Source: a phage. From it: 64,000 bases of DNA. The position numbers and the translations under genes were made by a program. The DNA is taken from the sequence record PV805633.1. The stretch is one strand, 5' to 3'. The number at the start of each line of letters is the position of its first letter. Positions within the stretch are counted from its first letter, which is position 1. The notes beneath the pieces were generated by a model that worked only from the letters and a program-made list of their open reading frames with translations, was not told the origin of the DNA and did not search any database. Of the stretch, positions 2,161 to 62,661 are shown one piece after another.

Positions 2161-2167
2161 TCACAAC

Positions 2168-3343: not shown

Positions 3344-3849
3344 TGATTGTTAATGGTAATTCTCTATACCGTTCATCTCAATTGCTGGATGTCCCAGACC
3401 GTAAAGTATCCGAGCATGGTGTAAGCTATGGATTAGGTGAAGCTGGTTATGATATTCGTATCAAACAAGACATTACCTTCTATCGCTTATTTGGATTGAT
3501 TCCAATGGTGAAAATCGCTGATGGAAAACAAGTATCACGCCACTTCGGTAAGTTTGCATTGGCTTCAGCAATTGAGAAATTCAACATGTCCCCGTCCTGT
3601 GTAGCTATCGTTCACGATAAGTCCACATGGGCAAGACGTGCATTATCTGTGTTCAATACCGTAATAGAACCAGGATGGAAAGGGTATCTTACCCTCGAAC
3701 TGGTCTATCATGGTCGTAAGAAACTGCATATCCCGGCTGGTGCTGGGATAGCTCAAGTATTATTTCATCTGGTTCAAGAGCCTGCTAACTACAATGGCAA
3801 GTATCAGAACCAGGAAAACAAACCAGTTGCTGCAAGAAGCAGCAAATAA
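3343..3849 (+). CDS. dCTP deaminase-like protein (dUTPase superfamily)
   Basis: 168 aa; EPGWKGYLTLEL resembles the Dcd/dUTPase DPGW...G signature; ATGA overlap with upstream gene. Confidence 0.65.
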   Translation: MIVNGNSLYRSSQLLDVPDRKVSEHGVSYGLGEAGYDIRIKQDITFYRLFGLIPMVKIADGKQVSRHFGKFALASAIEKFNMSPSCVAIVHDKSTWARRALSVFNTVIEPGWKGYLTLELVYHGRKKLHIPAGAGIAQVLFHLVQEPANYNGKYQNQENKPVAARSSK

Positions 3850-3858
3850 GGAAACAAC

Positions 3859-4059
3859 ATGTCAGTATTTCAAGTATCTCCTGTTGACAGTACCCAACGT
3901 AAAACTATTGTTGCAACTAACGTAGTAGATGTAGATGAAACCCCGACTGGTGCTGTAATTCATCTGATTGATGGACGAACTGTAACTGTAAAAGAAAGCT
4001 ATCGTTCAGTACGTGGATATGTTCGTAAAGCTTTGACTGCTGACTCTGACGCAGAGTAA
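3859..4059 (+). CDS. hypothetical protein (66 aa)
   Basis: ORF track; GGAAACAAC upstream of ATG. Confidence 0.5.
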   Translation: MSVFQVSPVDSTQRKTIVATNVVDVDETPTGAVIHLIDGRTVTVKESYRSVRGYVRKALTADSDAE

Positions 4060-4071
4060 GTAGCTGCCTAA

Positions 4072-4097
4072 ATAGCCCAACTATGTTGGGCTATTTG
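4072..4097 (+). terminator. terminator-like hairpin (9-bp stem ATAGCCCAA/TTGGGCTAT)
   Basis: Perfect 9-bp inverted repeat with 5-nt loop followed by TTGTG; weak U-tract. Confidence 0.4.
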
Positions 4098-4132
4098 TGA
4101 AGAAACTATCTCAACCTCACATAGGAACCATC

Positions 4133-4393
4133 ATGGAATCTTTAGCAGCAATCCTCGTTCTGTTATTTGCACTTGCTGTATACCTTATCCCTACTATTAT
4201 TGCTTTTGCACGAGGCCATGCCTCTAAGTGGGGCATTGGTGTACTCAATATCGTATTAGGCTGGTCTTTAGTCTTCTGGGTAGTAGCACTGATTTGGTCA
4301 CTGTCTAATAAAGAACAGTCTCAGACTACAATCGTTAACGTTGGTAGTGGTAACCAGTACAACGTGTCTCAAACGAGCCTGTCTGATAAGTAA
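4133..4393 (+). CDS. small inner-membrane protein (2 predicted TM helices), possible superinfection-immunity-like
   Basis: MESLAAILVLLFALAVYLIPTIIAFARGH...NIVLGWSLVFWVVALIW; track ORF begins at an upstream GTG (4097), ATG at 4133 preferred. Confidence 0.5.
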   Translation: MESLAAILVLLFALAVYLIPTIIAFARGHASKWGIGVLNIVLGWSLVFWVVALIWSLSNKEQSQTTIVNVGSGNQYNVSQTSLSDK

Positions 4394-4467
4394 CTAACCT
4401 AAGCATCATTGTATAGTGGTGCTTGTGGAAGTTACTTCCAGCTCATTACTTATCCATCTCCTAATCC

Positions 4468-4494
4468 AAGCCCACCTAACCCGTGGGCTTTTTT
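4468..4494 (+). terminator. Rho-independent terminator (AAGCCCAC/GTGGGCTT + T6)
   Basis: 8-bp stem, 7-nt loop, TTTTTT tract. Confidence 0.7.
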
Positions 4495-4578
4495 AATTAC
4501 AGGTACTCTTATGTCAAACAGACAAATGGTAAGTCTATCTTATATGGACTGGACTTAAGTAAACTGGAACAAACTGCA

Positions 4579-4890
4579 ATGCTTACTTTAGGTATACATG
4601 ACCAAGTAGAAGTGAATGGAATTGGTCCTGATGTTTGTGCAGCAATGCAAGCTGCTATTCAGAAAGGATGGACTAGTAGATCATTTAATGTTTTCCCATA
4701 CATCCCTCCTGAACCTCATCTGAAATCTAAGGTAGACAGAATCATAGATAAGTTCTGGCTTAGCCCATGCGGGGATGACATGCATCTTTACCTGGCTCAA
4801 ATACAAAAGAATCCGCGTACTAAAGATGTGTTCAAAGGCAAAAGCACTACCCACCATTACCCTTGGTATAGAAGAGGTAGTAAATACTAA
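4579..4890 (+). CDS. hypothetical protein (start uncertain; track ORF begins at GTG 4483 inside the terminator stem)
   Basis: First in-frame ATG downstream of the terminator; no clear SD. Confidence 0.4.
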   Translation: MLTLGIHDQVEVNGIGPDVCAAMQAAIQKGWTSRSFNVFPYIPPEPHLKSKVDRIIDKFWLSPCGDDMHLYLAQIQKNPRTKDVFKGKSTTHHYPWYRRGSKY

Positions 4891-5333
4891 TGCGTATCCC
4901 ATTCCTAAGAAAAAGGGAACGAAATCCTGTTCTTTATAATAAAGGTATAGAGGATGAGTACGAACTCAACCGTAAAGCCCGTTCCTACGCAACAAAATTA
5001 TTCATGGGGACTAGCAACCCTAATAGATTACTGGACTTTGTTTTCGAACAAGTCTTTATCATATACAGCTTAGCTATGTCTGCTGGTTCACAAGAAGTAA
5101 GTGATAAGGCAAGATATGCTCTCTGTATGCTCCGGAAAGAGTATGAAGCCATCATGTATGAAGACTTGTACTCCTTTAAGAAAGAAACCGCTGTAGCGTG
5201 TTCTGTGGCTCTTACTGAAGGTATAGCAGTATTACAAGAACTACCCCGTAGTGAGTTTAAGCTGGTATATGTCCAGGCCAGGAGAATTACAGAAAACCGA
5301 AGTGGTATTACCAACTATCTAAGGTCATTCTAA
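4890..5333 (+). CDS. hypothetical protein (147 aa)
   Basis: ORF track; start overlaps upstream stop. Confidence 0.55.
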   Translation: MRIPFLRKRERNPVLYNKGIEDEYELNRKARSYATKLFMGTSNPNRLLDFVFEQVFIIYSLAMSAGSQEVSDKARYALCMLRKEYEAIMYEDLYSFKKETAVACSVALTEGIAVLQELPRSEFKLVYVQARRITENRSGITNYLRSF

Positions 5334-9925: not shown

Positions 9926-11977
9926 ATGAAAATCGAACTGATTTCTATCATCGCACTGGCAGTTGACAGTCGTAACCTTACACTGTGGAAGCCAGATGGC
10001 TCTACGGTTGTATACCCTCAGAGCGACCCACGGGTTGCTCGTATTGTATCTGAAGCACAGACTAAAGGTCTGGGCACTACCCAGGATCAAATAGAAGTAA
10101 ACATTGCACCAGAAGTAGAACTTCGTACTGAATACCTGGAAGCAGAGAAAAACACCAACGGATTCGTTCGTTTCTTTAAGGTAGCTAAAGCTAAACTCAA
10201 AGAGTTCTTCGAAGATGGTACGGGTGTTTCACCAGCCCGTATCGTCTCAGATATTAAGCTAGGTAATCCTACTAAGACGCTGGTGTCTAAAGCTATGGAT
10301 ACCTACCTGGCTATTCAGGCTAATGAACCAGAAGTAACAGTAGCAGATGGTTACTACGACAAACGTGACAATCTGATGTGGGTTACTGGTTGGGATAAAG
10401 ACCATAACCATCTTGCACTGGTTCGTTTTATTAACGACGTACTTTGTTGGAGTCATAAGCATACTGATCATATTCTTGCACAGGAGTGGCCTATTGCAAT
10501 TCGTGCAGTATCCGATGATGAAATGGGTGAGTTTGCTAAACAAGCCCAATACATCAAAGGTGTACACATTGTATTTACCAACCGTGGGGAAACACCACTG
10601 CCTTATGTGGAAGTGGTTAAAACTACGAACCAGGATAAGCTGGCTGCTGCTTCAGAGAAGCTGGCTGCATTAGGTGCTATCAGTACCGATGATGCTAACT
10701 TCCATACTGATGTGAAGGAAGACGAGGTGGTTGTTGCTGTTACCAATAGTGGGGTTATCCCTGGAGTTGAGAACCTGCAACGTCATCTACGTCAGTCTGC
10801 CAAGCTGAAAGACTATAAGGGCTTTACCAAGTTCCTTGAGCGTCTGGCTCCGGTTATCAAAGACCGTCTGCACTCAGTGGAAGACCTGATGAAGTTCATG
10901 GAAACTGCTGAACTGCCTATCGCTGATGATGGCTCCATCCTGTTTCTGAAACGACTTAAGATCAAAGGCGAAGAAAATGGTAAACGTGTATTCGTTGACT
11001 GTCACTCAGGCAACATCCGTCAATGGGTAGGCTGTAAAGTACAGGTACGAGAAGACCTGGTAGACCCTGACCGTCGTCGGGACTGCTCCAATGGCCTGCA
11101 CGTAGCATCCATGAGCTACATCCGCACCTTCGGTGGTAACGTAACTATCCTAGGTAAAGTAGCACCAGAAGATGTATTTGCTGTTCCTGAGTACAACACT
11201 AATAAGATGCGTGTAGCTGCGTATCACATTATTGCTGAACTACCGGAAGAGGAACGTTGCAACGTTAACAATGGTATCTATCTGTCTAATACAGAAGTAG
11301 GTAAGAAGTTACTTAATGATGCCATCGTTGGGAACCATAGTTCACCTACCACACTTGTTATGGTTGGCGGACATCGTGGCACTAACCTCAAATACACCAA
11401 TCTATCATCTGGTTCCGTAGAACAATTCCGTACAGTTGCTAATAAAGAGGCACTGAATATGGAAGAGTCACTGAATGAAGCTTTAGCTGCTGAACCAGTG
11501 AAGGCTACTGACCTTAAACCTATTGTTAATAAGGCTCCTACCGTGAAAGAACAAATCCAGGAACTGATTAAAGAGTTCCTTAACGCAACTACTCCGGAAG
11601 ATAAATTAGCTGCTGCTGACTTACTTGTGGAAATGCGAGGTAAGGCTCGTAAGCCATGGGCTGCTTTAGGTGTTGGTTCTGATGTGGTGGCTAAGATTGC
11701 TGATGTACGTACAACCTACACAGCTAAACCTATTGGCAAACCAAAACCAGTGAAGCAAGCTAAGGTTCATCGCTCGGCTACTGCCACTAAGGTAGCACCG
11801 TCAGGTAAACACGCTGATAACCTGCGTAGCATCCTGAACGATACGTCCTACTCTGACTATCAGAAAGGTCATGCTCTGCAAGACTATAAGCGTCATGCTA
11901 AGAAGTCATTCACTGCAATGGGACTGACAGAAGAAGAAGCTAAGTTGGCTACCAAGCTGGTCAAGGCCGTTAAGTAA
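9926..11977 (+). CDS. rIIB: rIIB-like protein (assigned by size and adjacency to rIIA-like gene)
   Basis: 683 aa ORF immediately downstream of rIIA-like gene; no motif-level support. Confidence 0.45.
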   Translation: MKIELISIIALAVDSRNLTLWKPDGSTVVYPQSDPRVARIVSEAQTKGLGTTQDQIEVNIAPEVELRTEYLEAEKNTNGFVRFFKVAKAKLKEFFEDGTGVSPARIVSDIKLGNPTKTLVSKAMDTYLAIQANEPEVTVADGYYDKRDNLMWVTGWDKDHNHLALVRFINDVLCWSHKHTDHILAQEWPIAIRAVSDDEMGEFAKQAQYIKGVHIVFTNRGETPLPYVEVVKTTNQDKLAAASEKLAALGAISTDDANFHTDVKEDEVVVAVTNSGVIPGVENLQRHLRQSAKLKDYKGFTKFLERLAPVIKDRLHSVEDLMKFMETAELPIADDGSILFLKRLKIKGEENGKRVFVDCHSGNIRQWVGCKVQVREDLVDPDRRRDCSNGLHVASMSYIRTFGGNVTILGKVAPEDVFAVPEYNTNKMRVAAYHIIAELPEEERCNVNNGIYLSNTEVGKKLLNDAIVGNHSSPTTLVMVGGHRGTNLKYTNLSSGSVEQFRTVANKEALNMEESLNEALAAEPVKATDLKPIVNKAPTVKEQIQELIKEFLNATTPEDKLAAADLLVEMRGKARKPWAALGVGSDVVAKIADVRTTYTAKPIGKPKPVKQAKVHRSATATKVAPSGKHADNLRSILNDTSYSDYQKGHALQDYKRHAKKSFTAMGLTEEEAKLATKLVKAVK

Positions 11978-25853: not shown

Positions 25854-28800
25854 TTAGTTTACTAAGTTCATCCAAGGGTTTAGGTTGTGAGCACGAAGCC
25901 CCTGACCAAAGCCCCATGAGTAATCCAGACTACCCTTAGCAGCAATACTAAAGATGTTGTCCTGAATAGGTAAGCCAACGTTACCAAACATGGTAGGAGT
26001 TGGAGCCAGCATCGCCATTGCTGCATGTACTGGGTTATTGCGAATCATGGACACTGCAACTTTTGCAGAACGAATCTTAAAGTTGTAGAACCACATCAAA
26101 CCAACACTTTCCATATACCCACGGAAACGACCAGGCAGACGGTCATAGTTAATGAACTCTTCGGTTACACGTCCCAGTGCTTCTTCACGAGTCTTACCTT
26201 TACGCTGAGTCAGTTCATCATAGATGATTGCTTTAGCGATAAAGTCAGAGTACTCAACCGTCTTCTGGATACCCTGGAACAGAGCAGTATCTTTAGTGAT
26301 AAGTGCATAACGACCAGCAGCACGTACAGACTTAGGTAACTTATCCGCCAGCTTTTCCATGTATTCGTGAAGTTTGCCTTCAGTAATCAGGATGTCATCA
26401 CGACCAATACCAGCATCTGCAATTGAAGAGAACTCACCAGCTTCTATCAGAGGCCAGATACTCATACGCTTATGGCTATCAGTAATGGACTGAATCTCAG
26501 CCTTAAGTTTACGAATCTGATTCGGGTTAGTAGCTGCACGTAATTCTGCTTCTGCATCTACCTGACGTAAACGAGATTTAAGGTACTGGTTAATCTCAGC
26601 AGTTTTCTGTGGAATGCTCTTAGCAATGTTCTTAACTGGCACACCACGAGCAACCATCTGGTAAAGGTTAGCCAAAAAGTTAACAACAGGTACGACTACT
26701 GACTTAACTACAATCAGAGTCTTAGCATCTTTAACTAAGTTTTGAACCAGGTTCTCACCACCCATTAAGTACTTATAGGCGCGGTTACCGGCTAAACCCA
26801 GAATAGCTTTTTTAAAAGTATTAAGCGTTTCCGGGGACCAACGAGAATTACCAGACCAAGCATCACCAATCGAAGCTGCACGATAGCCAAGTGCATCATT
26901 CAGCATGTCACGACGTACCCACAGTTCACCCTCACCAAACAGTTTTTCTGCTTTCCGTCGAGTTTCGCTGTTCATCAGCTTAAGAGCATCAGCAGTTACT
27001 GGGTCCAGCTTAGAACCAAAAAGGTTCACGTACTGGGACTTATTAGCAGCAGACATCTTAATGTCTTCCTTGTACATGCTATACAGGTTCTCAATCAGCA
27101 TATCATTGAAACGCTGAGCCTTAGCTTCTTCCACCTGACGTCCACGCCATACACCAATTGCACGGGCAAGATGATTTTCACCTTCAATATGCTTCAGCAT
27201 ATTAGGGTTAATTGATTGCTCATAAGCAACCACATCACCTTTAGCATTATATACAGGCAGCAGTGGTTCATTACCACGTTCACCACGAGCTAGTGCTTTA
27301 GCGATACGGTCTACAGAAGGCTTGTCAGTAATACGACCAGCTACCATGGAACCCATAGTAAAGCCTGTACCGAGGTCTACACCACCAGCAGTATTACGAA
27401 CGTTCTGTAGAATACCTTGTGAGAACGGAGCCTGTGCCTGTACTGGGGCAAAGTAGTAGCTACGTGCCAGACCTCGGTTAGCAGAGCTACCTTGATAAGT
27501 ACCCAGACGAACATAGGACTTCTCTATCAAATCACCAAACTCGCTATCTTCAGCAACAACCAGACTAACACCCTGTTTAGTCTCACTAGGGATATACCCT
27601 TTGTACTGGTTCAGGGTTGCACGCATATTAGATTTGGCTTTAGCCATTTCATCTTTACGCTGCCCAACCAGGTAAGAAGTAGCAAAGTCCATTCCCTCAA
27701 CTTCTGTCTGAGCCAGTGAAGATAACATCTCACGGTCGGACTTGTTCATTGCTTCCAGTGCATACAGGGTAATAAGTTTATCCAGTTGAGCTACATCTAC
27801 AATAGAACGAGTAGTCTTACGTTCACCCAGCATACGAGAGATTGCAGTAGCATTACGCAGCAAGTTTTTACCGACTGTGCCATTAATCATGTACTGAGCC
27901 AGTTGCTTAGATTTACGGTTAATCAGAGGCCAGTTACGACCAGCTTGTTTCTGCAAATCTGCTTCCAGCTTATTCACTTCACGGTCAACAATCTTCTGGT
28001 CTGAAAGCAGGTCACGAATTTCAGCCAGAGACATGGTGTCACGCAGGACAGCTAAGTCAGTTTTACCCATACCAGTGTACATTGCTTTCCACTCATCCTT
28101 AGTCAGCTTACGGCTGAACTTAGATGCGATAGTGGTAGGCAGGTGTTCACGGAACTGCTGACGGTCAGCCTGCACCTGTGCACGGACTGCTTTAATCAAA
28201 TCGTATACAGAAGCATTGCTCTTAGTACGACCGGTTAAATCATTAACCAGGTCATGGAAAGGTTGCCATACTTTACCCTGGTTCATTGCAACCATAACGC
28301 CTTCAGCTACGTTTGCACCATTCTTCTCTGTAGCAATAGCAGCCATTAGTTGTGCAGCATGAGCAGCACCTTTGACCAATGGGTTCTTGGTATTAGCTGC
28401 AACTTCACGAGCACTTTCTAAAACACGAGTAGACAGTACATCAATAGAGTCCACCAAATACTGGTTAGCACGGTCAATAGCATTACCACTAGGAGTAGCA
28501 ACGGAATCATAGAATGACTGTGCATTTAGGCTAGTCTGCATGATTGTTTGAGCCAGTGCATCCATACCTTCCTGTACGTTGGTAGCTTTGGTATCACCTG
28601 CTACACGAGCATTCAGACTAGCCATTGCAGCAGTACCAATGTTAGTCAGCATTGCATCAACGGTATTCCCAGATTTCTTATCTGCTTTCATAACAGGAAT
28701 GTTAGCCAGTACGCTACGTACCTCTTCACTTACCATTGCCAGACCAACAAAGGTAGGCAGTATTGAAGAACGACCCTGTGCATCAAACTCAATATTGTTA

Positions 28801-31800
28801 GCACCCATGATGGTATCGAACTTCTGCTGTGCATAGTAACGGTCAGCAGGGTTAGTACTATCTGGGTCAGTCATGAATGATTCAACAGTCAGGTTCTTAG
28901 TAACGTGTGCATAGTATTCCTGTGCACGAGAAAGAGCAGCCGGACTAATAGCAGCTTCAGTAGCGAGTGCAGCAACAATGTTAGTAAAGAGACGCTGTTC
29001 CTGCATATTCATGGTAAAGCCATGAGCCTGAACATCACGGGTTACTTTAGTTGCGTGCTTTTTCGCATCAGAGAACTTACCTTCACGGATTACTTGCTGT
29101 ACTGGTTCTGAACCAATGTAGTTAGTAATCAGCTTATCAAAGGTCTGTCCTAACTCTTCCAGACGGGTATTGTCACCATATGCTTTGTTATGGAACAAGG
29201 TAGTATCTTTGGCTACAGCAGCCGTAGGAGCCTGACCACGCATAACTACTGAAGAGTTAAACAGTAAGCCAGAGAACATATCATCTGCATTAGCAGGTGC
29301 TTTCTTGCGACCAAATACCAGACGTTTGATTGCTTCATATACTGACTGAACCATGGCTTTCAGTGCAGTGGTCTTCTTCTGCTTACTAATTAATTCACGG
29401 TTAGTTAAGCCCCAAGCCATGTACTCATTCAGTGCAGCAGCTTTAGCCATTGCTGGTTCAATAAAGCCGTTAGACAAGTGACCATTAATGGTATTAAGTG
29501 CATCAGCATATGCTTCACGTACTGCCGGAGATTCATCCATAACATCCAGATTACGGAACTGGTTCATCAAGTCTTCAATATTCTGGACTGCTTCATTAGG
29601 AGTACCCTCATAGTGAGCCAGTACAGATTCAAAAGTAGAAGCATGTACTAATTCATGAACCAGAGTCTCTAGGGAAGGGGTAACTAAGTAGATGGTTTTA
29701 TCATCAAAGTTAGTCCAGCCATACGCATTACCAGCTTCGGCAGCTTCAATATCTTCCGGTGCTGGACGAGTAATGTTCTTCTCAATAGCATAGGCATCCA
29801 GTTGAGCAGGAGTACCGTAAACAACTTTGTAGTCTTTAGCAGCAAGGGATTTCTGTATCTCTTTCAATACTGCTTGCTGTTCTGGAGACATCTCTTTAGC
29901 CAGCTTGGTAATAGCAGTATTAGACAATAGACGTACACCAGACTTAAGTACACGACCAACTTGTTCCATTGCTGGCACTTCTTTAGTAGGTACTTCTTTC
30001 ACTGGATCTGCTTTAGCAGCACGTACTGCATCACGACGCTTATTTAATTCAGCATCAAACAGTTCGTTCAGCTTAGCTACTTGCTGGTCTACAGTCAGTC
30101 CCTCAAGAGAAATTTTACCGTTGTTCACATAAGGAGCACCTACAGCAGCCATCTGGTCAACAGTGGTCTGTACCTGGTTCATTACTTTGTGGCGAATATC
30201 CACACTTAAAGCAATGTTACGCAGGTTACGCTCAATAAGGTTAACACCGGAATTCTTAATCATATCAATCTTATACTGCCTGTCTCCCTCAACGCGACTG
30301 ATATGAGAAAGCTGTTCAAAATCTAAAGCGGAACGGGCAATGTCATCAATTGTCTTATCTGACAACTTATCAAAGTCTACATTCTTCAAGAACTCAGAGA
30401 AGGATTCATATACAGCCTTGATAGGATTCCCCTGCCAGGAAGTGTATACAGCCTCGTTTGCTTTACGACTTGCATCAGTGATGTCACTAATACCAATGTT
30501 CATACCATCAAAGATTTTCAGGGTATTCTTCGGAGCACCTTTCATAGTAGAAAGGGTCTGCATCATCATGCCATCACCAGTACCGATGGTCATAAATGGA
30601 ATACCTGCAACACCTGCTTGTGAAGGAGCATAGATGCTCATTGGCACACGCATACGGTCATCTAAGTTGGTAGCCAGTACTTGGTTAGCAACGTCAGTAC
30701 TCTCACTGCCAGCAAGGTAGAAAGTCTGTGAGCCAGTCTCAATCATTGGAGCCAATGGAGATAATGATTCCTGGATTTCATTCAGTTCTTTCTGTGTTAA
30801 GAAATCACCCTTCTTCCAGGTTGGGTCTTTTTCTTTTTCTGCTAGCTTAGCCTGTACTGCTTGCTGGAACATATCCTGCAATACCAGGGACTGAATCTGA
30901 GTAGCCTTCTGCAAGTTCTCAGTAGAGTACATCAGACCTTCACCAACAGTATTACGGATACCAGTACGCATTGGTTCAACGAACAAATGGAGCATATTCT
31001 CTTGTAAGTTCTTCAGAGCATTACCGGATACGGTAAATTTCTGAGGGTCTAACTTACCAGTCAGAGCACCATCTACTTCCTTAATAAATAACTTACCCTT
31101 ACGCTTAGCTGGAATCTTACCGGTCAGTGCTTCCATAGAAGTAAGGAAAGTATCCAGCATAGCCTGAGCATCTGCCTCAGACGCAGCCTCCTTACCAAAC
31201 ATTGCCATAGCCGGGGAAATGCTAGGGTCAGCAGCACGTGCTTGCAGAACGTCGCTGAAGCGTTCGTAGATGGTGTCAGTAATTGCACTGACCATCTTGC
31301 CAGCAATACCACGAGCACCAGAACCATAGATGGTAATGGTCAGAGGGTTCTTAGCGATACCACGTTTCAGGTCCAGAGTACCATCTTCATTCAGGTTAAA
31401 GTCTTTAATGAACAGGTCCATTAACTTCTGGAGATGATTTATCTGGTTCATAACTGGAACGTTGTTACGGTAAGTAGTACGTAACTCATTCAGTGCTTGT
31501 TGTAGACCATTGGTAGATGCTTCATACAAGTCAACATTATCGTCGATAGAACAATGTTCATTCATCGTTTTACCAGCACGACCGAAAAACAAACCACCTT
31601 TAGCAGTGTTCTTAATCCAGTCTGGGGTGAACTTACCACCAGTCATTAATACCATTGCATTGATTGGGCCGTTGGTTACACCATCAGCTTCAACGTACAG
31701 AGGGGTAGTAAAATTAGCACGGTCATCACTGTTCAGGTAACGGGCATATTCCATCAGAGCCATGAGAGCCACGAAGGATTTGTTATCACCCAGAGAGGTT

Positions 31801-34800
31801 TTCAGAATATCTACTGCATCAGTAGGTAAGTAGCCAGACTTATCAAACTCGACCATCATATCAACAGCAGGTTTCAGATTACCTTCCAGGGCTTTGGTCA
31901 GATTTTCAGACATAGCTTCACGGGACATTTTATGTACCTTGATGCCCAATGCCTGAGCCAGTCCTAGCTGGAAGTCAGAGAACGCTTGGCTGTTTTCATT
32001 ACTCAAGTCGATAGTAGAGAAGGTTGGCAGAATTGCTTCACGAACCAGTTTACTGGATTGTGGGTTATTCTTACCAAGCATCTGCATACGACCTACACGG
32101 GTCATGTTGTAACCGTAGTGGATAGGTGTATCCAGTCCATCCTCTTGTTCTTTTAGCTGATTAATTAAACCAAACAAGGAATCATATGCCATAGACACAG
32201 ACAGGTTTTTACCTTCCAGAGATTTGGCAGTGTTTTCATTCAGCAAATCAGGATTAAGAGAACCAGCACCCATCAGTTCCAGAATGCCGTCTCGACCTAA
32301 TGCTTCATAGAAATTAACCATCGGCATGTGTACACGGAACTCCGTAGCCTGTTCAGCTTTCAGAGCAGCTTTCTGTTCTGGGGTATTCCTAACCGCAGGG
32401 TTACGTAACTGAGTTTGAGCCACAGAAGGAATGTCGTCACCGAAGTACGTTTTCTCTTCCGGGTTTACCAAAACAGCTTCTTCAATTGCTGTAAGGAAAT
32501 TATTAATAGGGTCTTTATCAGCCAACTTATTAATAGTGTACAAACCAATAGTCTTATTAGAGTCCGGGTCAATCTCAGACACATCCAGCATAGTCTCAGT
32601 AACTGCACCCATCTCGATGAGGGAAGACAGAATCTCTGTAGCCATTGCCACTGGAATACCCTTGGTATAACCCAGTGGTGCATTAGGGTTACGGTTTAAA
32701 CCCCAGTAGGATTCAATCTTTTGAGCCAGTGAGTTAGTAGCCTCAATCAGAGTCTGGGCATTATCAAACTCAGCCAGAATACTTTCTGGTAACAGAGATG
32801 CATCTACACCAGTAATAGCAGCTACGTCTTTCATGTCTTTAATGGCAGCATTCTGTGTAGCAGTCAGTCGCCATTGCAGACCGGCAAGTACAGCAGTCTC
32901 TAACAACTGGTCATTGAACTTAAAGGTATCCCCGTCTTTCTCTACGATGTTAAGTAACTTACCACCTACCCAACGGTTAGCCTCAGTACCTTCTGCAAAA
33001 CGTTTACCAACATTTTTATTAGCAAGGAACTTAGCCAGTCGTTCAGACAGAGTAGCCTTCAGAGTTTCCCCAAAGTCCATCAAGTCCTGATAACGTTCTA
33101 ACACATCACCTGCGAGAACGTTATTTTCTTTTTGAGTGAACGCTTCAAAGCGAGCAGCAGAAGACAGTGCTTTCTTGATATCAGCCAAAGGAGATTCAGA
33201 GCCAATGGTACGGGACTTAGGTTCTTCCGGTAAGGTAAATGCTTTCAGGAACTGGTTCGGTGTCTTCTCATTGTTATAGACAGGGAACACTGCTTCCATT
33301 CCAGAAAGGGGTTTGCCACCCACTGTATAATCTGCTTTCAGCTGAGCCAGTGATACTTCATCCTTCTCCACGTTGTTAGTGTTACGACCAGAGGTATCTA
33401 CACCAACCAGTATCTGTGCATTATTAGCTTCAACGAAAGACTGAACAGTATTGAATTGTTCAGCAGTCAGCTTCTGATTATCAAACAGTTGCAGAGATAC
33501 GAATGGTTGTTCACTACCTTTATAGAAGGTAGAGCGAATAGCACCTGTATCCAGAGACATATCACGATAACCATCGTGACCAAATACATCGGACAGGCTG
33601 ATATGGTCGCCATTAGAACCAACCACAGTACCATCAGCAAACAGCCATGGACTCTCCCTACGATCACCATACTTATTAAGAGTTTCCTGTGAAATAGTAT
33701 TTTCTTTCACATAAGCATCTCTCTCAGATTCAGTAGGTTGTTCGACGGTATCCTCATTAGTGGGGGTAGCCTCATCTACAACCGGGCTAGTCTTTTCAGA
33801 CTTAGGTACTTTCTCTTCCTGTACAGGTGTAACTTCTGGCTGGGAGAATGTATTACGTACATAGTTCATAAAATCATTACGTGCTTGAGAAGGAGAAGAC
33901 CATACTTCCCGTGTGCTACGTAAACTAAAGATTCGACCTTCAGGAGTCATTACGTAAGGTACATTTGTTTCACCGTACTTAAATGAAGTGAGCACGTCTG
34001 ACTTACCAGTAACAGTGCTTTCCCCTGGAATGACAATAGTCTTACCACCAGTAGAAGGAACAGCACGAACACCCTCAATATCCTTACCAAGAGAAATATA
34101 CTCTTTACCGTTGTAATCAAAGTACTGACCTATCTGCATATAGGTAGCTTGTTGCTTACCAGTAAACTCAGCAGTTTTCATCTCCGGGCCATTAGGTACA
34201 GACGTACTTTCAGACTTAGGCTTAGATACTTTCTCTGGTTCTGACTTAGACTCTACAGTGTTAGGAGCAGTTTTATTGTTTACCACTGGTTTAGCTTTAG
34301 ATTGTACAGTAGTAGTGTCCTCTTGCACTGGTGCAGGGGTTTCATCAACCTGATTCACTGGTTCATTAGTCTGTTGAGACTGAGTGGCATTAAGACCACC
34401 TTGACGGAACTCTTTAACTACCTGGGCAGCTGGCTTGTTCAGACGTGAATCCAACGAGGTAACTTTCACATGAGAAACATTAAGCTCCGGGTAAGCCGTA
34501 GCAAGTGCGTTAGCAATATCAGCTACGGTCTTAGCTTCCAGCGCTACTTGCTGGGCAAACTTAACAGACTTGGTATCATAAGGATTGACACCGAGGCCAG
34601 TACGACTACGTACCCATTCACGGGTAGGCGTGAGAGCCTGATAATGAACAGACTTATTCTTATCCGCATTCCCCGAAATCAGATGCTCATTCAACGCTCC
34701 GACCTTATTCTGCATGTGCTGGGCGAACTTCATAAAATCGCTCAGATAAGCGGAGGCCAAATCGAAGTTACCAGAGTTATACGCAGAACGAATGCGTTTC

Positions 34801-37100
34801 GCATGTTGCAACGCAGAGTACTGTCCTTCATTAGAACGAGACTCGTCGGTTTTAATCTGTTTACTAACGATGTCTTGACGACGTAAGCCCAGTTCTTCTG
34901 CTTTAGCATCATACTCACGTGCACCCTGTAATAGAGCAGCAGCTGATTGCAGGGCAGCACGTTGACGATTATTCAGTGTAATCTTACCTTCACTCGCATG
35001 CTTCAGAACCATGTTCACTGAATCTGCATCCAGTACTTCTGGAGACATATCAGCAGCCATAGCAATGTTGTTTGCTTGGGCTTGGTTAGCTTCTTCAGTA
35101 GCTTTCAGTTTACCTGCTTCAGCCTGTTCCTGAATCATAGAATGGATGGCACGGAATGCACGAAGTACTTTAGGGGTATTCTGTATGTTAGCCATCAGGC
35201 CGGAGAACTGGTCTACGATTGCAGCAGCAGGAGAACCTTGTTCCAGATTAGCCAGAGCACCTGGGTCACGGTTAATGAAGCTATCCATAGACATGATGTT
35301 GTCATACATCTGGATTGCAGCTTCCATTTGAACGTTAGGGTCTTCAGCAGTATTAACCAGGTCAGCCATCTTCTGAATAGCTTCCACACGGTTAGTGGAA
35401 CCAGAAACAGCTTCACGGATTACTGGGCTGGCTTGTTCCAATTCTACTGGGTCAAACTTCATTGCCTGGGTTAAGTCAGCAGCATACTGGGTAGCAGCAG
35501 CCTTCTCTTCTGGAGTGATGTCCATTGCATCTACTGCTTCCTGTACAGTTGCTTGTGCTTGCTCTGCTTGAGCAGCAGCTTCCTGTGCAGCAGCATTAAC
35601 CGTAGCATCAGCTACAGGGGATGCTTGTTCATTACGCTTAGCAACTTCTTCACCACGTTGAACCAGGATGTTAGTAAGAGGGGATGCAGCTTTAGCTAAT
35701 GTTTTACCAACCAGAGAAGCACCTGCCAGAGTAGTACGAAGAGCGGGGCCAGCAGCAGCACCGGCAGCTTTAACAGTTGCACCTGGAGCTTGAGCAACCC
35801 CAGCACTACCGAAGCCATAGAGTGCACCAAGACCCGCTTGCTCACCGACACCTTTGAGGGTATCTCGGGATGCATCAACATTTTCCTTGATTGCACGGTT
35901 CTGTGCGAACTGACCAAAGCCTGATTGAGTACCCTCTTCAAAAGTCTGAGCACCAAGGTTAGTAAGGGCTGCCCCAGCAGAACCAACCCTCATGGGGTTA
36001 AGTTCAAACTTAGATACTAACGGACCCATAGCAGCAGCAACTGGAGCAGTTAAGCCAGCAGCAATGATACCTGTTTCGGATGCAGTCTGACGACGTGCTT
36101 CATCAGGAGATAAACCATCAGCAATATGTTGTTGGTAAACAGGAGACTTACTTGCCAGTTCTGGATGGGACATCTTCATGATTTCAGAAGCAGTCTGTTG
36201 GTATGCACCACCAGCTTCCATACCACCGATTGCAATAGCAGGTGCAGCAACACGACCAGTAGACAATGCAACCTGTGCAGGACGTGAACCTAACCCAGCA
36301 GCTAAGGTAATACCCTTAACAGCTTTATCACCACCTACCATTACTTTACCGAGTGCAGATACACCACGGATAAGAGGACCACCAGTAAAGAGGGAACCAA
36401 CACCTTCACTCAGTCCATCTGAGGCAGCCATACCATTATCAAGTGTATTAGCAACAGAGTCGAAAGCGTCACGACCAATGCGAGACAGGGAGGCAACCAA
36501 ATCGCTCTCCCCATTTTTGATGTCCTGTTCATAGAGTTTCTGGTTCTTTTGAGCAGAAATCTGGTTCTGATTCTGAACAACTTTACGGGTAGCATTCAGT
36601 GCATCAGACTGTAGACTATGCACGCCTTCATTCAACCAATCCATCCCGGAAGCAATGGTTGCCCCGGCATTATCATTGACCAGACCTGCGCCAAGAGCAG
36701 CAATGCCCCCAAGGGTATTAGCAACACCAAGACCAACACCAGAAAGAGTATCGCCAAATGCTTCTGCGTTAGTACGCTGTTTAGATAAGTCCTGACGTAC
36801 AGCATCCGCAGCATTAGCTCGGCTATTAAGAATCTGTAAACCTTGCTCATTACCGTACTTATTAATGATTTCTAAAGGGGAGGCTTGAGTGAAATCTGCT
36901 TGAAGTGAACCTGGTTCGAATGCACCGATTCCAAGATTACCTACTCGTCCAGTCTGGAGATTGTAAGCATTCTCTGGGGTTAATTGGAAAGGGTTTTGCC
37001 CTTGTGCAGCTTGCTTCTGAGCGGTTGCAGTAGAGACATCGACTTGCTTAGCATTAGTGATGCTGTCTGCGAAACCTGCCAGACGGTCAAATGTTGACAT
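25854..37100 (-). CDS. giant virion-encapsidated RNA polymerase-like protein (N4 gp50-like), ~3748 aa
   Basis: Single uninterrupted 11.2-kb ORF; AGGAAA SD before ATG at 37100 (track starts at upstream TTG 37118); size and position match the N4-type vRNAP. Confidence 0.8.
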   Translation of the reverse strand: MSTFDRLAGFADSITNAKQVDVSTATAQKQAAQGQNPFQLTPENAYNLQTGRVGNLGIGAFEPGSLQADFTQASPLEIINKYGNEQGLQILNSRANAADAVRQDLSKQRTNAEAFGDTLSGVGLGVANTLGGIAALGAGLVNDNAGATIASGMDWLNEGVHSLQSDALNATRKVVQNQNQISAQKNQKLYEQDIKNGESDLVASLSRIGRDAFDSVANTLDNGMAASDGLSEGVGSLFTGGPLIRGVSALGKVMVGGDKAVKGITLAAGLGSRPAQVALSTGRVAAPAIAIGGMEAGGAYQQTASEIMKMSHPELASKSPVYQQHIADGLSPDEARRQTASETGIIAAGLTAPVAAAMGPLVSKFELNPMRVGSAGAALTNLGAQTFEEGTQSGFGQFAQNRAIKENVDASRDTLKGVGEQAGLGALYGFGSAGVAQAPGATVKAAGAAAGPALRTTLAGASLVGKTLAKAASPLTNILVQRGEEVAKRNEQASPVADATVNAAAQEAAAQAEQAQATVQEAVDAMDITPEEKAAATQYAADLTQAMKFDPVELEQASPVIREAVSGSTNRVEAIQKMADLVNTAEDPNVQMEAAIQMYDNIMSMDSFINRDPGALANLEQGSPAAAIVDQFSGLMANIQNTPKVLRAFRAIHSMIQEQAEAGKLKATEEANQAQANNIAMAADMSPEVLDADSVNMVLKHASEGKITLNNRQRAALQSAAALLQGAREYDAKAEELGLRRQDIVSKQIKTDESRSNEGQYSALQHAKRIRSAYNSGNFDLASAYLSDFMKFAQHMQNKVGALNEHLISGNADKNKSVHYQALTPTREWVRSRTGLGVNPYDTKSVKFAQQVALEAKTVADIANALATAYPELNVSHVKVTSLDSRLNKPAAQVVKEFRQGGLNATQSQQTNEPVNQVDETPAPVQEDTTTVQSKAKPVVNNKTAPNTVESKSEPEKVSKPKSESTSVPNGPEMKTAEFTGKQQATYMQIGQYFDYNGKEYISLGKDIEGVRAVPSTGGKTIVIPGESTVTGKSDVLTSFKYGETNVPYVMTPEGRIFSLRSTREVWSSPSQARNDFMNYVRNTFSQPEVTPVQEEKVPKSEKTSPVVDEATPTNEDTVEQPTESERDAYVKENTISQETLNKYGDRRESPWLFADGTVVGSNGDHISLSDVFGHDGYRDMSLDTGAIRSTFYKGSEQPFVSLQLFDNQKLTAEQFNTVQSFVEANNAQILVGVDTSGRNTNNVEKDEVSLAQLKADYTVGGKPLSGMEAVFPVYNNEKTPNQFLKAFTLPEEPKSRTIGSESPLADIKKALSSAARFEAFTQKENNVLAGDVLERYQDLMDFGETLKATLSERLAKFLANKNVGKRFAEGTEANRWVGGKLLNIVEKDGDTFKFNDQLLETAVLAGLQWRLTATQNAAIKDMKDVAAITGVDASLLPESILAEFDNAQTLIEATNSLAQKIESYWGLNRNPNAPLGYTKGIPVAMATEILSSLIEMGAVTETMLDVSEIDPDSNKTIGLYTINKLADKDPINNFLTAIEEAVLVNPEEKTYFGDDIPSVAQTQLRNPAVRNTPEQKAALKAEQATEFRVHMPMVNFYEALGRDGILELMGAGSLNPDLLNENTAKSLEGKNLSVSMAYDSLFGLINQLKEQEDGLDTPIHYGYNMTRVGRMQMLGKNNPQSSKLVREAILPTFSTIDLSNENSQAFSDFQLGLAQALGIKVHKMSREAMSENLTKALEGNLKPAVDMMVEFDKSGYLPTDAVDILKTSLGDNKSFVALMALMEYARYLNSDDRANFTTPLYVEADGVTNGPINAMVLMTGGKFTPDWIKNTAKGGLFFGRAGKTMNEHCSIDDNVDLYEASTNGLQQALNELRTTYRNNVPVMNQINHLQKLMDLFIKDFNLNEDGTLDLKRGIAKNPLTITIYGSGARGIAGKMVSAITDTIYERFSDVLQARAADPSISPAMAMFGKEAASEADAQAMLDTFLTSMEALTGKIPAKRKGKLFIKEVDGALTGKLDPQKFTVSGNALKNLQENMLHLFVEPMRTGIRNTVGEGLMYSTENLQKATQIQSLVLQDMFQQAVQAKLAEKEKDPTWKKGDFLTQKELNEIQESLSPLAPMIETGSQTFYLAGSESTDVANQVLATNLDDRMRVPMSIYAPSQAGVAGIPFMTIGTGDGMMMQTLSTMKGAPKNTLKIFDGMNIGISDITDASRKANEAVYTSWQGNPIKAVYESFSEFLKNVDFDKLSDKTIDDIARSALDFEQLSHISRVEGDRQYKIDMIKNSGVNLIERNLRNIALSVDIRHKVMNQVQTTVDQMAAVGAPYVNNGKISLEGLTVDQQVAKLNELFDAELNKRRDAVRAAKADPVKEVPTKEVPAMEQVGRVLKSGVRLLSNTAITKLAKEMSPEQQAVLKEIQKSLAAKDYKVVYGTPAQLDAYAIEKNITRPAPEDIEAAEAGNAYGWTNFDDKTIYLVTPSLETLVHELVHASTFESVLAHYEGTPNEAVQNIEDLMNQFRNLDVMDESPAVREAYADALNTINGHLSNGFIEPAMAKAAALNEYMAWGLTNRELISKQKKTTALKAMVQSVYEAIKRLVFGRKKAPANADDMFSGLLFNSSVVMRGQAPTAAVAKDTTLFHNKAYGDNTRLEELGQTFDKLITNYIGSEPVQQVIREGKFSDAKKHATKVTRDVQAHGFTMNMQEQRLFTNIVAALATEAAISPAALSRAQEYYAHVTKNLTVESFMTDPDSTNPADRYYAQQKFDTIMGANNIEFDAQGRSSILPTFVGLAMVSEEVRSVLANIPVMKADKKSGNTVDAMLTNIGTAAMASLNARVAGDTKATNVQEGMDALAQTIMQTSLNAQSFYDSVATPSGNAIDRANQYLVDSIDVLSTRVLESAREVAANTKNPLVKGAAHAAQLMAAIATEKNGANVAEGVMVAMNQGKVWQPFHDLVNDLTGRTKSNASVYDLIKAVRAQVQADRQQFREHLPTTIASKFSRKLTKDEWKAMYTGMGKTDLAVLRDTMSLAEIRDLLSDQKIVDREVNKLEADLQKQAGRNWPLINRKSKQLAQYMINGTVGKNLLRNATAISRMLGERKTTRSIVDVAQLDKLITLYALEAMNKSDREMLSSLAQTEVEGMDFATSYLVGQRKDEMAKAKSNMRATLNQYKGYIPSETKQGVSLVVAEDSEFGDLIEKSYVRLGTYQGSSANRGLARSYYFAPVQAQAPFSQGILQNVRNTAGGVDLGTGFTMGSMVAGRITDKPSVDRIAKALARGERGNEPLLPVYNAKGDVVAYEQSINPNMLKHIEGENHLARAIGVWRGRQVEEAKAQRFNDMLIENLYSMYKEDIKMSAANKSQYVNLFGSKLDPVTADALKLMNSETRRKAEKLFGEGELWVRRDMLNDALGYRAASIGDAWSGNSRWSPETLNTFKKAILGLAGNRAYKYLMGGENLVQNLVKDAKTLIVVKSVVVPVVNFLANLYQMVARGVPVKNIAKSIPQKTAEINQYLKSRLRQVDAEAELRAATNPNQIRKLKAEIQSITDSHKRMSIWPLIEAGEFSSIADAGIGRDDILITEGKLHEYMEKLADKLPKSVRAAGRYALITKDTALFQGIQKTVEYSDFIAKAIIYDELTQRKGKTREEALGRVTEEFINYDRLPGRFRGYMESVGLMWFYNFKIRSAKVAVSMIRNNPVHAAMAMLAPTPTMFGNVGLPIQDNIFSIAAKGSLDYSWGFGQGLRAHNLNPWMNLVN

Positions 37101-37164
37101 AGCATGTTTCCTGTTCAAACTTATATCGTATATAGGTAACCTACTCTACAGTAAGCCAGTGTAA

Positions 37165-37190
37165 GAAAAAAGCCCCGTAGGGCTTTTATT
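37165..37190 (-). terminator. terminator-like hairpin between gp51-like gene and vRNAP gene
   Basis: AGCCC/GGGCT stem flanked by an A-tract and a T-tract on the + strand. Confidence 0.4.
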
Positions 37191-37203: not shown

Positions 37204-39158
37204 TTAAGGCATTTTCACATACCCAGGTATGCCTTGGGCTTGGCGTATATACCGTATAGCACGCTCCTGGTTTTCTTTCTCAGCCTCCCGATCTACGGAA
37301 GCCTGTGATCGAAAGTTACGAGGAGCCAGGTTTTGCGGATCAGCCTGTACCTGCCCCTGAGCATTTTTAAGCATTGCAGCAGCTCTAGCAACAGCCTCCT
37401 GTCGTGCAGGTAACAGTGCAGTAAGTGCAGTCTGACCTGTAGCAATCTTATTTGGGTGTTTGACAGTGCAGCTACGGCAGCATCATATGCAGTCTGTGCT
37501 GCCTGAATATTCTGCATAGCCTGAGCACGACCAAGGTTACGTACACTTGCTTCAAGGGGTTCACCACGTTTTAACCCCTCAATCATTTGGTCTACCTGAC
37601 GGTCATTAAGTCGCAAGCCATTACCGGCTTCTGGGGTTTGCCCTATAGTTAGATAATCAATAAGACGTCCTGTATTACTTTCCGGTACGTTAGTCATTGC
37701 ACGTTGAACAACAACACCTGCCATAGCAGGAGATACATTAGCACGCTGAGCAATATCATTGATACGAGCCACAACCCATTGTTTATCTGCCCCCTTAAAG
37801 TCACCCTCTAGTAATCTGTTAGCAACTTCCCCAACAGTAGAAGTGTCATTTAAGGCAGGTAAATAATCAGGAGCAATACTTCCAGCATTGTCCTCCATAG
37901 AACGAGTACCAATCATACCGGTAGCCAGAGTAGATACTGCCTGATTACCTTGGTTATTCTGAACCATAGCTAGTGGGTCAGCCCCTACTTCAGCTTGGGC
38001 AATAACAGGTTTCATCTCTTCCCAAGTCATATCCTTATAAGCACCTGGAGTAGAGTTAGGCAGAGCAGCCCAAGTATCTTTAAGGTTACCGTTCTTACGG
38101 GCCTCGAAGATAGCCCTACCAATCTTATCCTGGTTCTCAGGAGAAAGAGGCTGGCTTTGCCAATCTGGACCAAGAACTTTAGGAGCGAAGTCTAGCAGAG
38201 TAGCTTGGTTAATCTGGAATGCACCAACAGGAGAAGCACCCTGCTTCGACTTCATACTATCCTGATGCTTAATTACATCACCAATACTCATTTGAGTAAT
38301 AGGAGTAGATGTACCAGCAAACTGGTAAGTAACATCATAAGGAGAACCCTGACGAGTACCAGCAGTACCTGGGGCAGACGTAGCACCAACATTGTTACCG
38401 TAAACACCCGGATATGCTCGTGCAAGCATTTCCTGCAAACGTGCCTGTGCAACCGGAGACAGATGCTTACTATAAGATTCTGCCAGAATACGGGCATCGT
38501 CAGCATTCTCAGCACCACGAGTAATCAGTGCCATTACCCCCGTAGCAGCCTGACTATCAGCATCATTACGTTGAGCAACACCTAAATCAAAACGATTCTG
38601 TGCCTGATTAATAGCCTGACCACCCTGACCTTGAAGACGACTCAGCATGTCCAATTGCTGGTCAGCAGGGAGTGCAGACAATGCATCACGGGTCTGACTT
38701 AATGCAGCATTAATACGGTTCTGGTCACCCGACTGATAAGCCTCAGACAGCAAACGAATAGCAGGGGAAGCATTATCTAATGCAGTGTTAGTATCCCGTA
38801 AACGATCAAAGTTATAAGTATTGTAGTCATTGGTTCCCTGCTGACCTTGTTGAGTCAACAGTGTACCTGCTCGCTCATCAAGGTTTTGGAGGGTACGCTG
38901 GTTTATCAATGAAGGGTCAACCCCCTGAAACAGTGCACCAGATGCCAAAGCATTGCGGTACTCAGTAGGGTCTTGGTACTGCATAGCATTCATCATGACG
39001 GCATTGCCAGCCTCCTGCTTGGCAGCGTTCTGGAAATTACCCAGTGCATCACTTAAGCCGGAGGTGGCGTTACCAATCATGCTACCAAATGTGCGAATGC
39101 TGTCACCAACTCCAGAGAAGTTAGGTGCATCAACATTTCTCCACGTTATCTGAGCCAT
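37204..39158 (-). CDS. virion protein (N4 gp51-like), Gln/Ala-rich; reading frame interrupted by a 1-nt indel near 37451-37453
   Basis: 621-aa track ORF ends in R/L-rich out-of-frame sequence; alternative frame gives a coherent C-terminus ending ...GIPGYVKMP at 37204; AGGAAACC SD before ATG 39158. Confidence 0.65.
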
Positions 39159-39170
39159 GATGGTTTCCTA

Positions 39171-39635
39171 TTAACGAGTTAATTTATTAGCTGCAATGTA
39201 AGCATCAGCCGAAGACTGGTCACGGTTCTCTGCTGTAGCACGACTACGAGCACGGTCTTCCAGTGCAGTGTTATAAGACTTAATCTGATTATTCAGGTTA
39301 GTGTTAGTAACACTCTTAGTAAAGTTCAACTGGTCTTTGGCTAACTTGTTAGCCTGGAAACCACTATAGATACCTGCTAAGGAACCAAGTGCACCGAGTC
39401 CTAGCTGGAAGGTAGGAATGTTCATTCCCAACTGATTAGCTGAACCAGATAAGAAAGAGGTGGGCGTAGTTAATCCTGTACCTGCATTCATACCAATAGC
39501 TGCACCCGGATTGTAGTTCATAGCTGGGGTATTAAAGTTCTGATTGTTATTAGACATCCAAGACATAGCAGCTGGCTGTGGGGTTTGGTTGCCTGTTAAG
39601 AATGACAAATCCATGGGGATTCTCCTGTTAAACAA
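39171..39635 (-). CDS. virion protein (154 aa), Gly/Asn-rich
   Basis: ORF track; tight spacing within the late operon. Confidence 0.6.
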   Translation of the reverse strand: MFNRRIPMDLSFLTGNQTPQPAAMSWMSNNNQNFNTPAMNYNPGAAIGMNAGTGLTTPTSFLSGSANQLGMNIPTFQLGLGALGSLAGIYSGFQANKLAKDQLNFTKSVTNTNLNNQIKSYNTALEDRARSRATAENRDQSSADAYIAANKLTR

Positions 39636-60886: not shown

Positions 60887-61088
60887 GATAGCTACAATAT
60901 TTTTGCATGTCGATTTCATCATAGCTATGTGTAGCTACAGTGGTGTGACTGGGGCTACACCCTTACACTCAACCATCCCCCCCGGTATGTTGACCCTGTA
61001 GCCACTACCCTACCCCACCTTACACGTTACACGTTGCTCCGCAACCTATGGACATGTCGTCCTATCATCAACTATTGGAGCTATCATC
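60887..61088 (+). promoter_or_regulatory. palindrome- and repeat-rich intergenic control region (candidate promoter/operator cluster)
   Basis: Palindromes ATAGCTAT and GTAGCTAC (three TAGCTA cores within 50 nt), direct repeats TACACGT x2 and CTATCATCA x2, -35/-10-like TTGCAT-17-TATGTG. Confidence 0.4.
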
Positions 61089-61412
61089 ATGACTACTACC
61101 GCTACTGTACGTATGACCGCAGGAACTCTGCTGGGTACTGTTAACTCAGCTGCTACTACTGTTGCAGATTCCTTCGGTGCTGCAACAAAAGCAGTTGGTA
61201 TGCTTAATTCTTATGTAAGTACTATGGCAAAGAAACAAGCCATTCGTACTAAATTAGAAATGCATACTTTCGAAAACAAATTAGCTGAAGAAACAGCTAT
61301 GAACGAGACTCTTCGTAAGAAAAGTATCGAAGAATTCTGCAAAGATCCAGAAAACGCTCGTATCTACAACGCAGAATATTCAAGAATAATTGACATCCTG
61401 TCTAAAGACTAA
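61089..61412 (+). CDS. hypothetical protein (107 aa)
   Basis: TGGAG upstream of ATG. Confidence 0.55.
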   Translation: MTTTATVRMTAGTLLGTVNSAATTVADSFGAATKAVGMLNSYVSTMAKKQAIRTKLEMHTFENKLAEETAMNETLRKKSIEEFCKDPENARIYNAEYSRIIDILSKD

Positions 61413-61415
61413 ATC

Positions 61416-61442
61416 AATAGGAGGCTCTTCGAGCCTCCTATT
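61416..61442 (+). other. perfect 12-bp hairpin (AATAGGAGGCTC / GAGCCTCCTATT, 3-nt loop) directly after the stop codon
   Basis: Perfect inverted repeat; no U-tract; the 12-mer AATAGGAGGCTC recurs at 63563-63574 in the terminator. Confidence 0.5.
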
Positions 61443-61501
61443 AAGGGCATTAGATAGATAGATAGTCAGTTCTGTATAAAAAGATAGGAGAGATACCTAC
61501 T

Positions 61502-61648
61502 ATGAGCAAACTAAAAAACGCATTCATGCTGATTGTCAGTGTCCTTGCACTTGTTGCTATGGTTTCCGTATACATTGGAAAACCTCTGGTAAACACTGAC
61601 TATGGTAATGGTCAGAAAGTAAAATCCATCCTGCTAATGGATAAGTAA
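61502..61648 (+). CDS. small membrane protein (48 aa)
   Basis: AGGAGA SD; single TM helix AFMLIVSVLALVAMVSVYI. Confidence 0.45.
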   Translation: MSKLKNAFMLIVSVLALVAMVSVYIGKPLVNTDYGNGQKVKSILLMDK

Positions 61649-61832
61649 AATGTCCTTGAATCTAAATCACCGTAAGAAATTCTGGATATCTTACATACCC
61701 TAAAAGACAACGACGCTCCGCGTCTTATGGATGATGTAAATGCATCCACTAATCATTGAAATTTTATCCTTTTGTTTGGGTGTTCTCACCGACGAGTTCA
61801 CCCGTAATTCACATAAATCTGGAGAGTACAAA

Positions 61833-62660: not shown

Positions 62661-62661
62661 A

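Follow-up and report, generated by a model that had tools for sequence, protein, structure and literature searches.

The window analysed here is a stretch of 64,000 nucleotides of phage DNA (sequence record PV805633.1), and the locus under study is a giant gene on its minus strand. This gene almost certainly encodes the virion-encapsidated RNA polymerase (vRNAP, the orthologue of gp50) of a G7C-like, N4-type coliphage (Gamaleyavirus, Schitoviridae), and the protein carries, in an interdomain linker, two modules that are probably passengers (Table 1). The stop-free open reading frame (ORF) spans 25854..37118 on the minus strand and would give 3754 residues if counted from a TTG codon. The ATG at 37100 was taken as the real start because AGGAAA lies 8 nucleotides ahead of it and because the N-termini of G7C gp50 and N4 gp50 agree with it (MSTFDRLAG / MSVFDRLAG); the product is 3748 residues long, with a mass of ~410 kDa. 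An 11.2-kb ORF arising by chance is ruled out, the probability of 3750 stop-free codons being about (61/64)^3750, roughly e^-180; the DNA has 44% GC. The original prediction, made from the letters of the window, had given the exact coordinates of this uninterrupted ORF, though no strand, and had read it as a virion RNA polymerase-like protein that types the phage as N4-like.

The comparison with known proteins bears this reading out from end to end. In a phmmer search of all PDB chains, the full-length N4 vRNAP (3500 residues; 11GP, 9PNQ, 9PNR) was matched over the whole length with E=0, and the crystal chains of the N4 mini-vRNAP (2PO4, 3C2P, 3Q0A) were matched, also at E=0, over residues 1265-2362, in agreement with the similarity to the mini-vRNAP that had been proposed as a check on the central region. 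The protein is collinear with N4 gp50, residues 1-966 and 1257-3747 pairing with N4 residues 1-970 and 998-3499. Four Pfam domains specific to such proteins were recovered (N4_RNAP_helical, vRNAP_dom_2, vRNAP_dom and vRNAP_plug; PF21894, PF21867, PF21769, PF21624) with 87-337 bits at a cut-off of 27, and in PHROGs the family phrog_2206 ‘virion RNA polymerase’ was matched with 4060 bits over residues 25-3747. A megablast search against 50,697 phage records matched 88 of them, the best being vB_EcoP_G7C (96.9% over 100% of the gene), where the gene is annotated ‘virion RNA polymerase’. Protein identity falls from 98% with G7C to 91-95% with other gamaleyaviruses, 66% with N4 and 30% with Shigella phage B2 (Ithacavirus), and a database search found no identical protein on record. 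Most of the window aligns with many gamaleyaviruses at 88-97% nucleotide identity, which places the phage in the genus Gamaleyavirus. The N4-like type therefore holds, but the nearest relative is G7C and not N4 itself. The gene type is already known, annotated and well understood, so that the assignment is useful for annotation and is not new; typing the phage as a G7C-like schitovirus makes the transcription programme of N4 transferable to it. Several orthologues of about 90% identity carry wrong labels in GenBank, such as ‘DNA polymerase’ (U1G, ST4, PD205, HK2) and ‘gram positive anchor domain protein’ (ECBP1), and in pSb-1 the gene is split into three ORFs.

The central part, for which T7-like RNA polymerase (RNAP) motifs had been predicted, indeed keeps the catalytic Arg, Asp, Lys and Tyr residues of single-subunit RNAPs, all in identical local sequence. 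These are R1671 in T/DxxGR, D1806 in motif A, R1913, K1917 and Y1925 in motif B and D2198 in motif C, and their N4 counterparts in mini-vRNAP numbering are R424, D559, R666, K670, Y678 and D951; W1377 is kept as well, the counterpart of the N4 Trp (W129) that stacks on the hairpin promoter. The list of catalytic and hairpin-stacking residues in N4 is the one that we take to be given by Kazmierczak 2002 and Gleghorn 2008, and its numbering was verified, every N4 position carrying the expected residue. The flanking regions follow the N4 plan, in which the N-terminal domain anchors in the membrane and binds gp51, residues 907-1006 form a 100-residue low-complexity tether of a ‘beads-on-a-string’ protein, and the C-terminal domain is required for encapsidation and autoinhibits the polymerase (PMC13434306). 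The C-terminal domain of the window protein also keeps, as HELVH at residue 2482, the HExxH motif that is assigned in this region of vRNAPs to a zincin-like domain (Iyer et al., PMC5512222).

Hairpin promoters had been expected in the early region, and two sites of the N4 type are present there (Table 1). The P1-like site was found by a scan for hairpins with a 5-bp stem and a 3-nucleotide loop, and at the equivalent place N4 P1 reads CCATAA-GTTGC-GAA-GCAAC. The N4 P2 hairpin, whose sequence we take to be that of the DNA in PDB 3C2P, was located at N4 559-571 on the template strand, and the P2-like site of the window is a copy of it with two mismatches. Both mismatches are compensatory (GAAGC/GCTTC in N4, GACGC/GCGTC in the window), and the GGA loop and the upstream CATCCA-AAG context are retained. 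The strict motif CCAWAR-stem5-GRA-stem5 occurs twice in the window, upstream of the gp1 and gp2 homologues, where 0.015 occurrences are expected per shuffle. N4 1-5000 has three such sites, ahead of gp1, gp2 and gp15, the genes transcribed by N4 vRNAP (PMC13434306); the third expected site falls outside the window. Folded as single-stranded DNA, both window sites form the same hairpins as the N4 promoters, with energies that are modest, as they likewise are for the authentic N4 sites. Counting both strands, the window has nine hairpins that combine a perfect 5-bp stem with a GRA loop (4.2 +/- 2.0 in shuffles), two of them in promoter context. A perfect 12-bp palindrome with a 3-nucleotide loop (AATAGGAGGCTC-TTC-GAGCCTCCTATT) lies at about 61416-61442, between the gp1 and gp1.1 homologues; having neither a T-tail nor CCAWAR context, it may be a terminator or a processing site of early transcripts.

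The residues and the hairpins also bear on whether the polymerase is functional. The ORF might instead code for a very large structural, tail or ‘polyvalent’ protein that does not work as an RNA polymerase, such as a vRNAP that has decayed and is retained only for ejection or as a scaffold: in N4 the N- and C-terminal two thirds act in membrane anchoring, encapsidation and autoinhibition and not as polymerase, and some orthologue records bear labels other than RNA polymerase, ‘hypothetical protein’ among them. This is extremely improbable: the checked catalytic and promoter-contact residues are all kept in identical context, dN/dS (the ratio of non-synonymous to synonymous substitution rates) is 0.06-0.15 in the polymerase domain, the cognate hairpins are kept, one of them with a compensatory change, and the divergent labels are annotation errors on genes that are about 90% identical.

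With vRNAP as the preferred assignment, the feature that sets the protein apart from N4 lies in its linker. The PDB alignment is interrupted at residues 966-1257, where the multiple alignment resolves two separate insertions, here called modules A and B, in the Pro/Glu/Thr-rich linker between the N-terminal and RNAP domains. The boundaries of both fall within low-complexity linker, and both have a globular composition, unlike the linker that flanks them. A mutual relationship between the modules was rejected (hhalign probability 0.2%). Even at E<=10, neither of the modules and none of the 19 module-B members matched an LPD model in Pfam, the comparison covering those of the published families LPD1-LPD40 that are deposited there. 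In the literature searched, which included neither the original paper on G7C nor the supplement on the LPDs, no description of either module was found, and the claim made here is limited to ‘not in current domain libraries’. Word-indexed protein searches with the two modules gave no match but were uninformative, as they missed the G7C protein itself, and their place was taken by a HMMER search run exhaustively against 1.84 billion representative proteins.

Beyond the window, G7C and the distantly related Shigella phage B2 are the only phages known to carry module A; N4 and most gamaleyaviruses lack it. The window and B2 copies share 75% of their amino acids, whereas the flanking domains share 27-30%, and the sole nucleotide similarity between the two vRNAP genes is a block of 353 nucleotides (76.8%) that coincides with module A. 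For this module dN is 0.145, against about 0.9 elsewhere in the gene, and dN/dS is 0.13, indicating strong purifying selection. The high identity relative to the flanks, the single nucleotide-similar block and the low dN point to a lateral exchange of module A as the parsimonious explanation. The exhaustive search yielded no further relative of module A, and a scan of IMG/VR returned G7C alone. Two matches, P0021 and P0022, belong to beta-propeller repeat proteins of the FG-GAP-like type and were rejected as repeat-boosted chance matches. The AlphaFold model built from the module A sequence alone reached a pLDDT of 39, too low for use in a fold search.

Module B has a wider distribution. About 28 gamaleyavirus records contain it, PhAPEC7-type genomes and N4 lack it, and the exhaustive search recovered it in 20 cluster representatives. 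It occurs in DarB-like polyvalent proteins (SLT, methyltransferase, SNF2/Sbno helicase, ddrB-ParB, LPD39) with 57-62% identity, in proteins with LPD38, LPD22, SLT or polyvalent-type pyrophosphatase (InPase) domains, in one TrwC relaxase, in a distant vRNAP at the same position, and as a stand-alone protein of 166 residues. The alignment of 19 members (alignment A1; 22-67% identity) contains eight invariant residues, S-P-x-L, G, D-H, R and Q, and dN/dS of 0.015-0.065 indicates strong purifying selection. Scans of the individual members found no consistent match in Pfam, PHROGs or NCBIfam, and a tblastn search with the relaxase-borne copy found no match in PLSDB plasmids. The only match of the module-B profile in the PDB, 37 residues of FliF at E=0.0098, was rejected as spurious. 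A single-sequence model of module B (pLDDT 63) gave weak and individually insignificant structural matches with a restriction-endonuclease-like flavour. On this basis module B might be an active nuclease of the PD-(D/E)xK, Hjc or splicing-endonuclease type aimed at host nucleic acids, but we regard this as quite unlikely, as each match is insignificant and comes from that low-scoring model, the invariant SPxL, G, DH, R and Q lie off the D...(D/E)xK positions on model strands 2 and 3, and the profile search of the PDB gave no real match. Whatever its fold, module B represents an uncatalogued domain family in proteins physically delivered to recipient cells, and is thereby a candidate early effector.

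Modules A and B appear from these comparisons to have been acquired independently and to be under selective constraint. They are most likely passenger domains, comparable to those of other injected polyvalent proteins, that would travel into the host together with the polymerase and stay tethered close to where the DNA enters. This reading draws on the placement of vRNAPs among polyvalent proteins, in which they occasionally carry passengers such as ART, lysozyme, PBECR and RNase domains (PMC5512222); the window vRNAP agrees with this class, whose members usually include a zincin-like MPTase, in keeping HExxH and in having module B in common with bona fide polyvalent proteins. The modules may instead have a purely structural role. 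They could also be an expanded linker or spacer, or remnants of selfish insertions of intein or homing-element type, with no function of their own. They sit in a low-complexity linker, in a protein whose length varies from 3450 to 3748 residues among close relatives, HNH homing endonucleases are abundant in G7C-like genomes, and neither module can be assigned to a known family or fold. We nevertheless consider this unlikely, given their globular composition, the purifying selection on both (dN/dS 0.015-0.13), and, for module B, the eight invariant residues in 19 sequences together with the stand-alone form and the presence in unrelated injected proteins. An intein or homing-element origin was specifically rejected, as no Hint, intein or HNH signature was detected with Pfam. 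Taking the passenger reading further, we tentatively suggest that the linker between the N-terminal and RNAP domains of schitoviruses may be a plug-in site for small effector domains that phages swap with one another. Modules A and B might then be undescribed host-directed domains (for example anti-defence or host-takeover), placed at the inner membrane face beside the entering DNA and delivered before phage gene expression, and module B might represent a new enzymatic or ligand-binding family, with its invariant D-H, R and Q, of injected phage proteins and conjugative relaxases.

The genes around the vRNAP gene are in the N4 order, with the Sak4-like gp44, the SSB gp45, gp46 and gp47 on the plus strand and gp50, gp51, gp52 and gp53 on the minus strand. 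The SSB gene, which the original prediction implied in expecting SSB-dependent late transcription, is of the N4 type, and in N4 this protein is the activator of late transcription; gp51 and gp52 are the ejection-channel partners of N4 vRNAP (PMC13434306). The rightward and leftward gene blocks converge at a bidirectional terminator just past the vRNAP stop codon, where the G7C and PhAPEC7 records have terminators annotated on both strands, and a terminator-like hairpin (37187-37168) separates the gene from gp51. Followed in the direction of transcription, the vRNAP gene is thus the last, terminator-bracketed unit of the leftward block; it had been described as the first gene of the late block, which is true in map order only. 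The bracketing would fit the low copy number of vRNAP, 4 +/- 1 per virion in N4 (PMC13434306). Within the 65 nucleotides that separate the upstream hairpin from the ATG, no convincing sigma-70 promoter was found, a result of little weight as N4 late promoters are SSB-dependent and weak. The gp51 homologue (37293-39158, minus strand) has a deletion of one nucleotide with respect to G7C at 37442-37460 (ACCCAGAATAAG to ACCCAAATAAG), which shifts the frame about 85 codons ahead of the natural stop, so that the conserved C-terminus runs on in another frame as far as about 37204. The cause may be an error of assembly or sequencing; otherwise gp51, the outer-membrane ejection protein that works with vRNAP, carries a true frameshift. 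No tRNAs were found in the window.

Table 1. Coordinates of the vRNAP gene, its domains and associated features in the window
Feature	Position	Strand	Basis or remarks
vRNAP gene (gp50 orthologue)	25854..37100	minus	3748 aa + stop, ATG at 37100; G7C gp50 96.9% nt / 98% aa, N4 gp50 66% aa end to end
N-terminal domain, aa 1-900	34401..37100	minus	61% identity to N4
Linker part 1, low-complexity, Pro/Glu/Thr/Ser/Lys/Gln-rich, aa 901-972	34185..34400	minus	PETSKQ fraction 0.64
Module A, orphan beta-rich domain, aa 973-1086	33843..34184	minus	Alignment with N4, G7C and B2
Linker part 2, low-complexity, aa 1087-1124	33729..33842	minus	PETSKQ fraction 0.74
Module B, uncatalogued domain, aa 1125-1262	33315..33728	minus	Alignment and profile searches
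Single-subunit RNAP domain (mini-vRNAP equivalent), aa 1278-2360	30021..33269	minus	PDB, Pfam, residue alignment
C-terminal domain with HExxH, aa 2361-3748	25857..30020	minus	N4 alignment
N4-type SSB (gp45 homologue)	21838..22641	plus	phrog_743, E=1e-88; G7C annotation
gp51 and gp52 homologues	37293..39635	minus	G7C annotation
Bidirectional intrinsic terminator, perfect 10-bp stem, 4-nt loop	25824..25847	both	6 nt past vRNAP stop codon
Terminator-like hairpin AAAAGCCC-TACG-GGGCTTTT with T-rich tail	37163..37187	minus	Between gp51 and vRNAP gene; annotated terminator in PhAPEC7
P1-like vRNAP promoter hairpin GTTGC-GGA-GCAAC, CCATAG ahead	61033..61045	minus (template strand)	Upstream of gp1 homologue
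P2-like vRNAP promoter hairpin GACGC-GGA-GCGTC, CCATAA ahead	61712..61724	minus (template strand)	Upstream of gp2 homologue

Local BLAST against the G7C ends indicated that the window is a circular permutation, 60946-64000 corresponding to G7C 1-3528 (the early region) and position 1 to about G7C 9020. At the junction at 60946 the right end of the genome (the gp69-gp71.2 region) runs straight into the left-end early region, with one copy of the terminal repeat. Outside the window lie about 5.5 kb (G7C 3.5-9.0 kb), including the RNAPII genes gp15/gp16, and with relatives of 70-73 kb this agrees with the predicted podophage of about 70 kb. The genome is a mosaic: the vRNAP gene is nearest to G7C, while the late, tail and packaging region (40001-64000), for which G7C is not among the top matches, is nearest to ST4, ZQ2, pSb-1 and PD205 (90-94% identity, 74-78% coverage). 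No record on its own spans the whole window at >95% identity. Several small G7C genes are absent or diverged past BLAST detection, namely the HNH gene gp24.1 between gp24 and gp25 (G7C 10917-11393), gp1.2 (843-1058) and the HNH gene gp2.1 (1836-2330), the corresponding places in the window being 2160-2168 and about 61650. Close relatives differ in their content of homing endonucleases.

Virion packaging, injection and rifampicin-resistant early transcription are established for N4. By homology, and given the full-length orthology, the catalytic and promoter-contact residues, the partner genes and the two cognate hairpins seen in the window, packaging, ejection and activity of the window protein would follow the same course. 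A few copies of vRNAP would be packed in the capsid, and once gp52 and gp51 have built an envelope-spanning channel, the protein would thread into the cell as ‘beads on a string’. Its N-terminal domain would remain at the inner membrane, and the central T7-like single-subunit RNAP domain would refold and recognise the small hairpins that the early region extrudes on its template strand, each with a 5-bp stem and a purine loop of 3 nucleotides. Transcription of gp1, gp2 and the RNAPII genes would then begin the early-middle-late cascade, in which the late genes, that of vRNAP included, would be read leftward by the host RNAP with the phage SSB. Natural vRNAP variants with zero, one or two extra linker domains occur within one genus, PhAPEC7 having neither module and Bas96 module B alone, and offer a ready-made test of the ‘beads-on-a-string’ model of translocation.

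Among known systems, the closest is G7C gp50 (AEL79661.1), which has the same length of 3748 residues, the same order of N-terminal domain, module A, module B, RNAP domain and C-terminal domain, and the same flanking terminators and neighbours; about 2% of the residues differ, and these are clustered in the linker (83% identity). N4 gp50 (YP_950528) is collinear in the three domains, with identities of 61%, 70% and 69%, and shares the polymerase motifs, HExxH, the type of hairpin promoter and the gene neighbourhood, but it has a plain low-complexity linker of about 100 residues where the window protein adds modules A and B (about 250 residues). The gp30 vRNAP of Shigella phage B2 (UUG68314.1), a member of Ithacavirus in another subfamily (Humphriesvirinae), has module A at the same relative position (residues ~966-1080) and is without module B. 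Finally, the polyvalent proteins of Iyer, Burroughs, Anand, de Souza and Aravind (2017), such as the P1 DarB-like proteins, are likewise giant proteins delivered with the DNA and composed of mobile domains joined by linkers, and several of them have module B in common with the vRNAP of the window.

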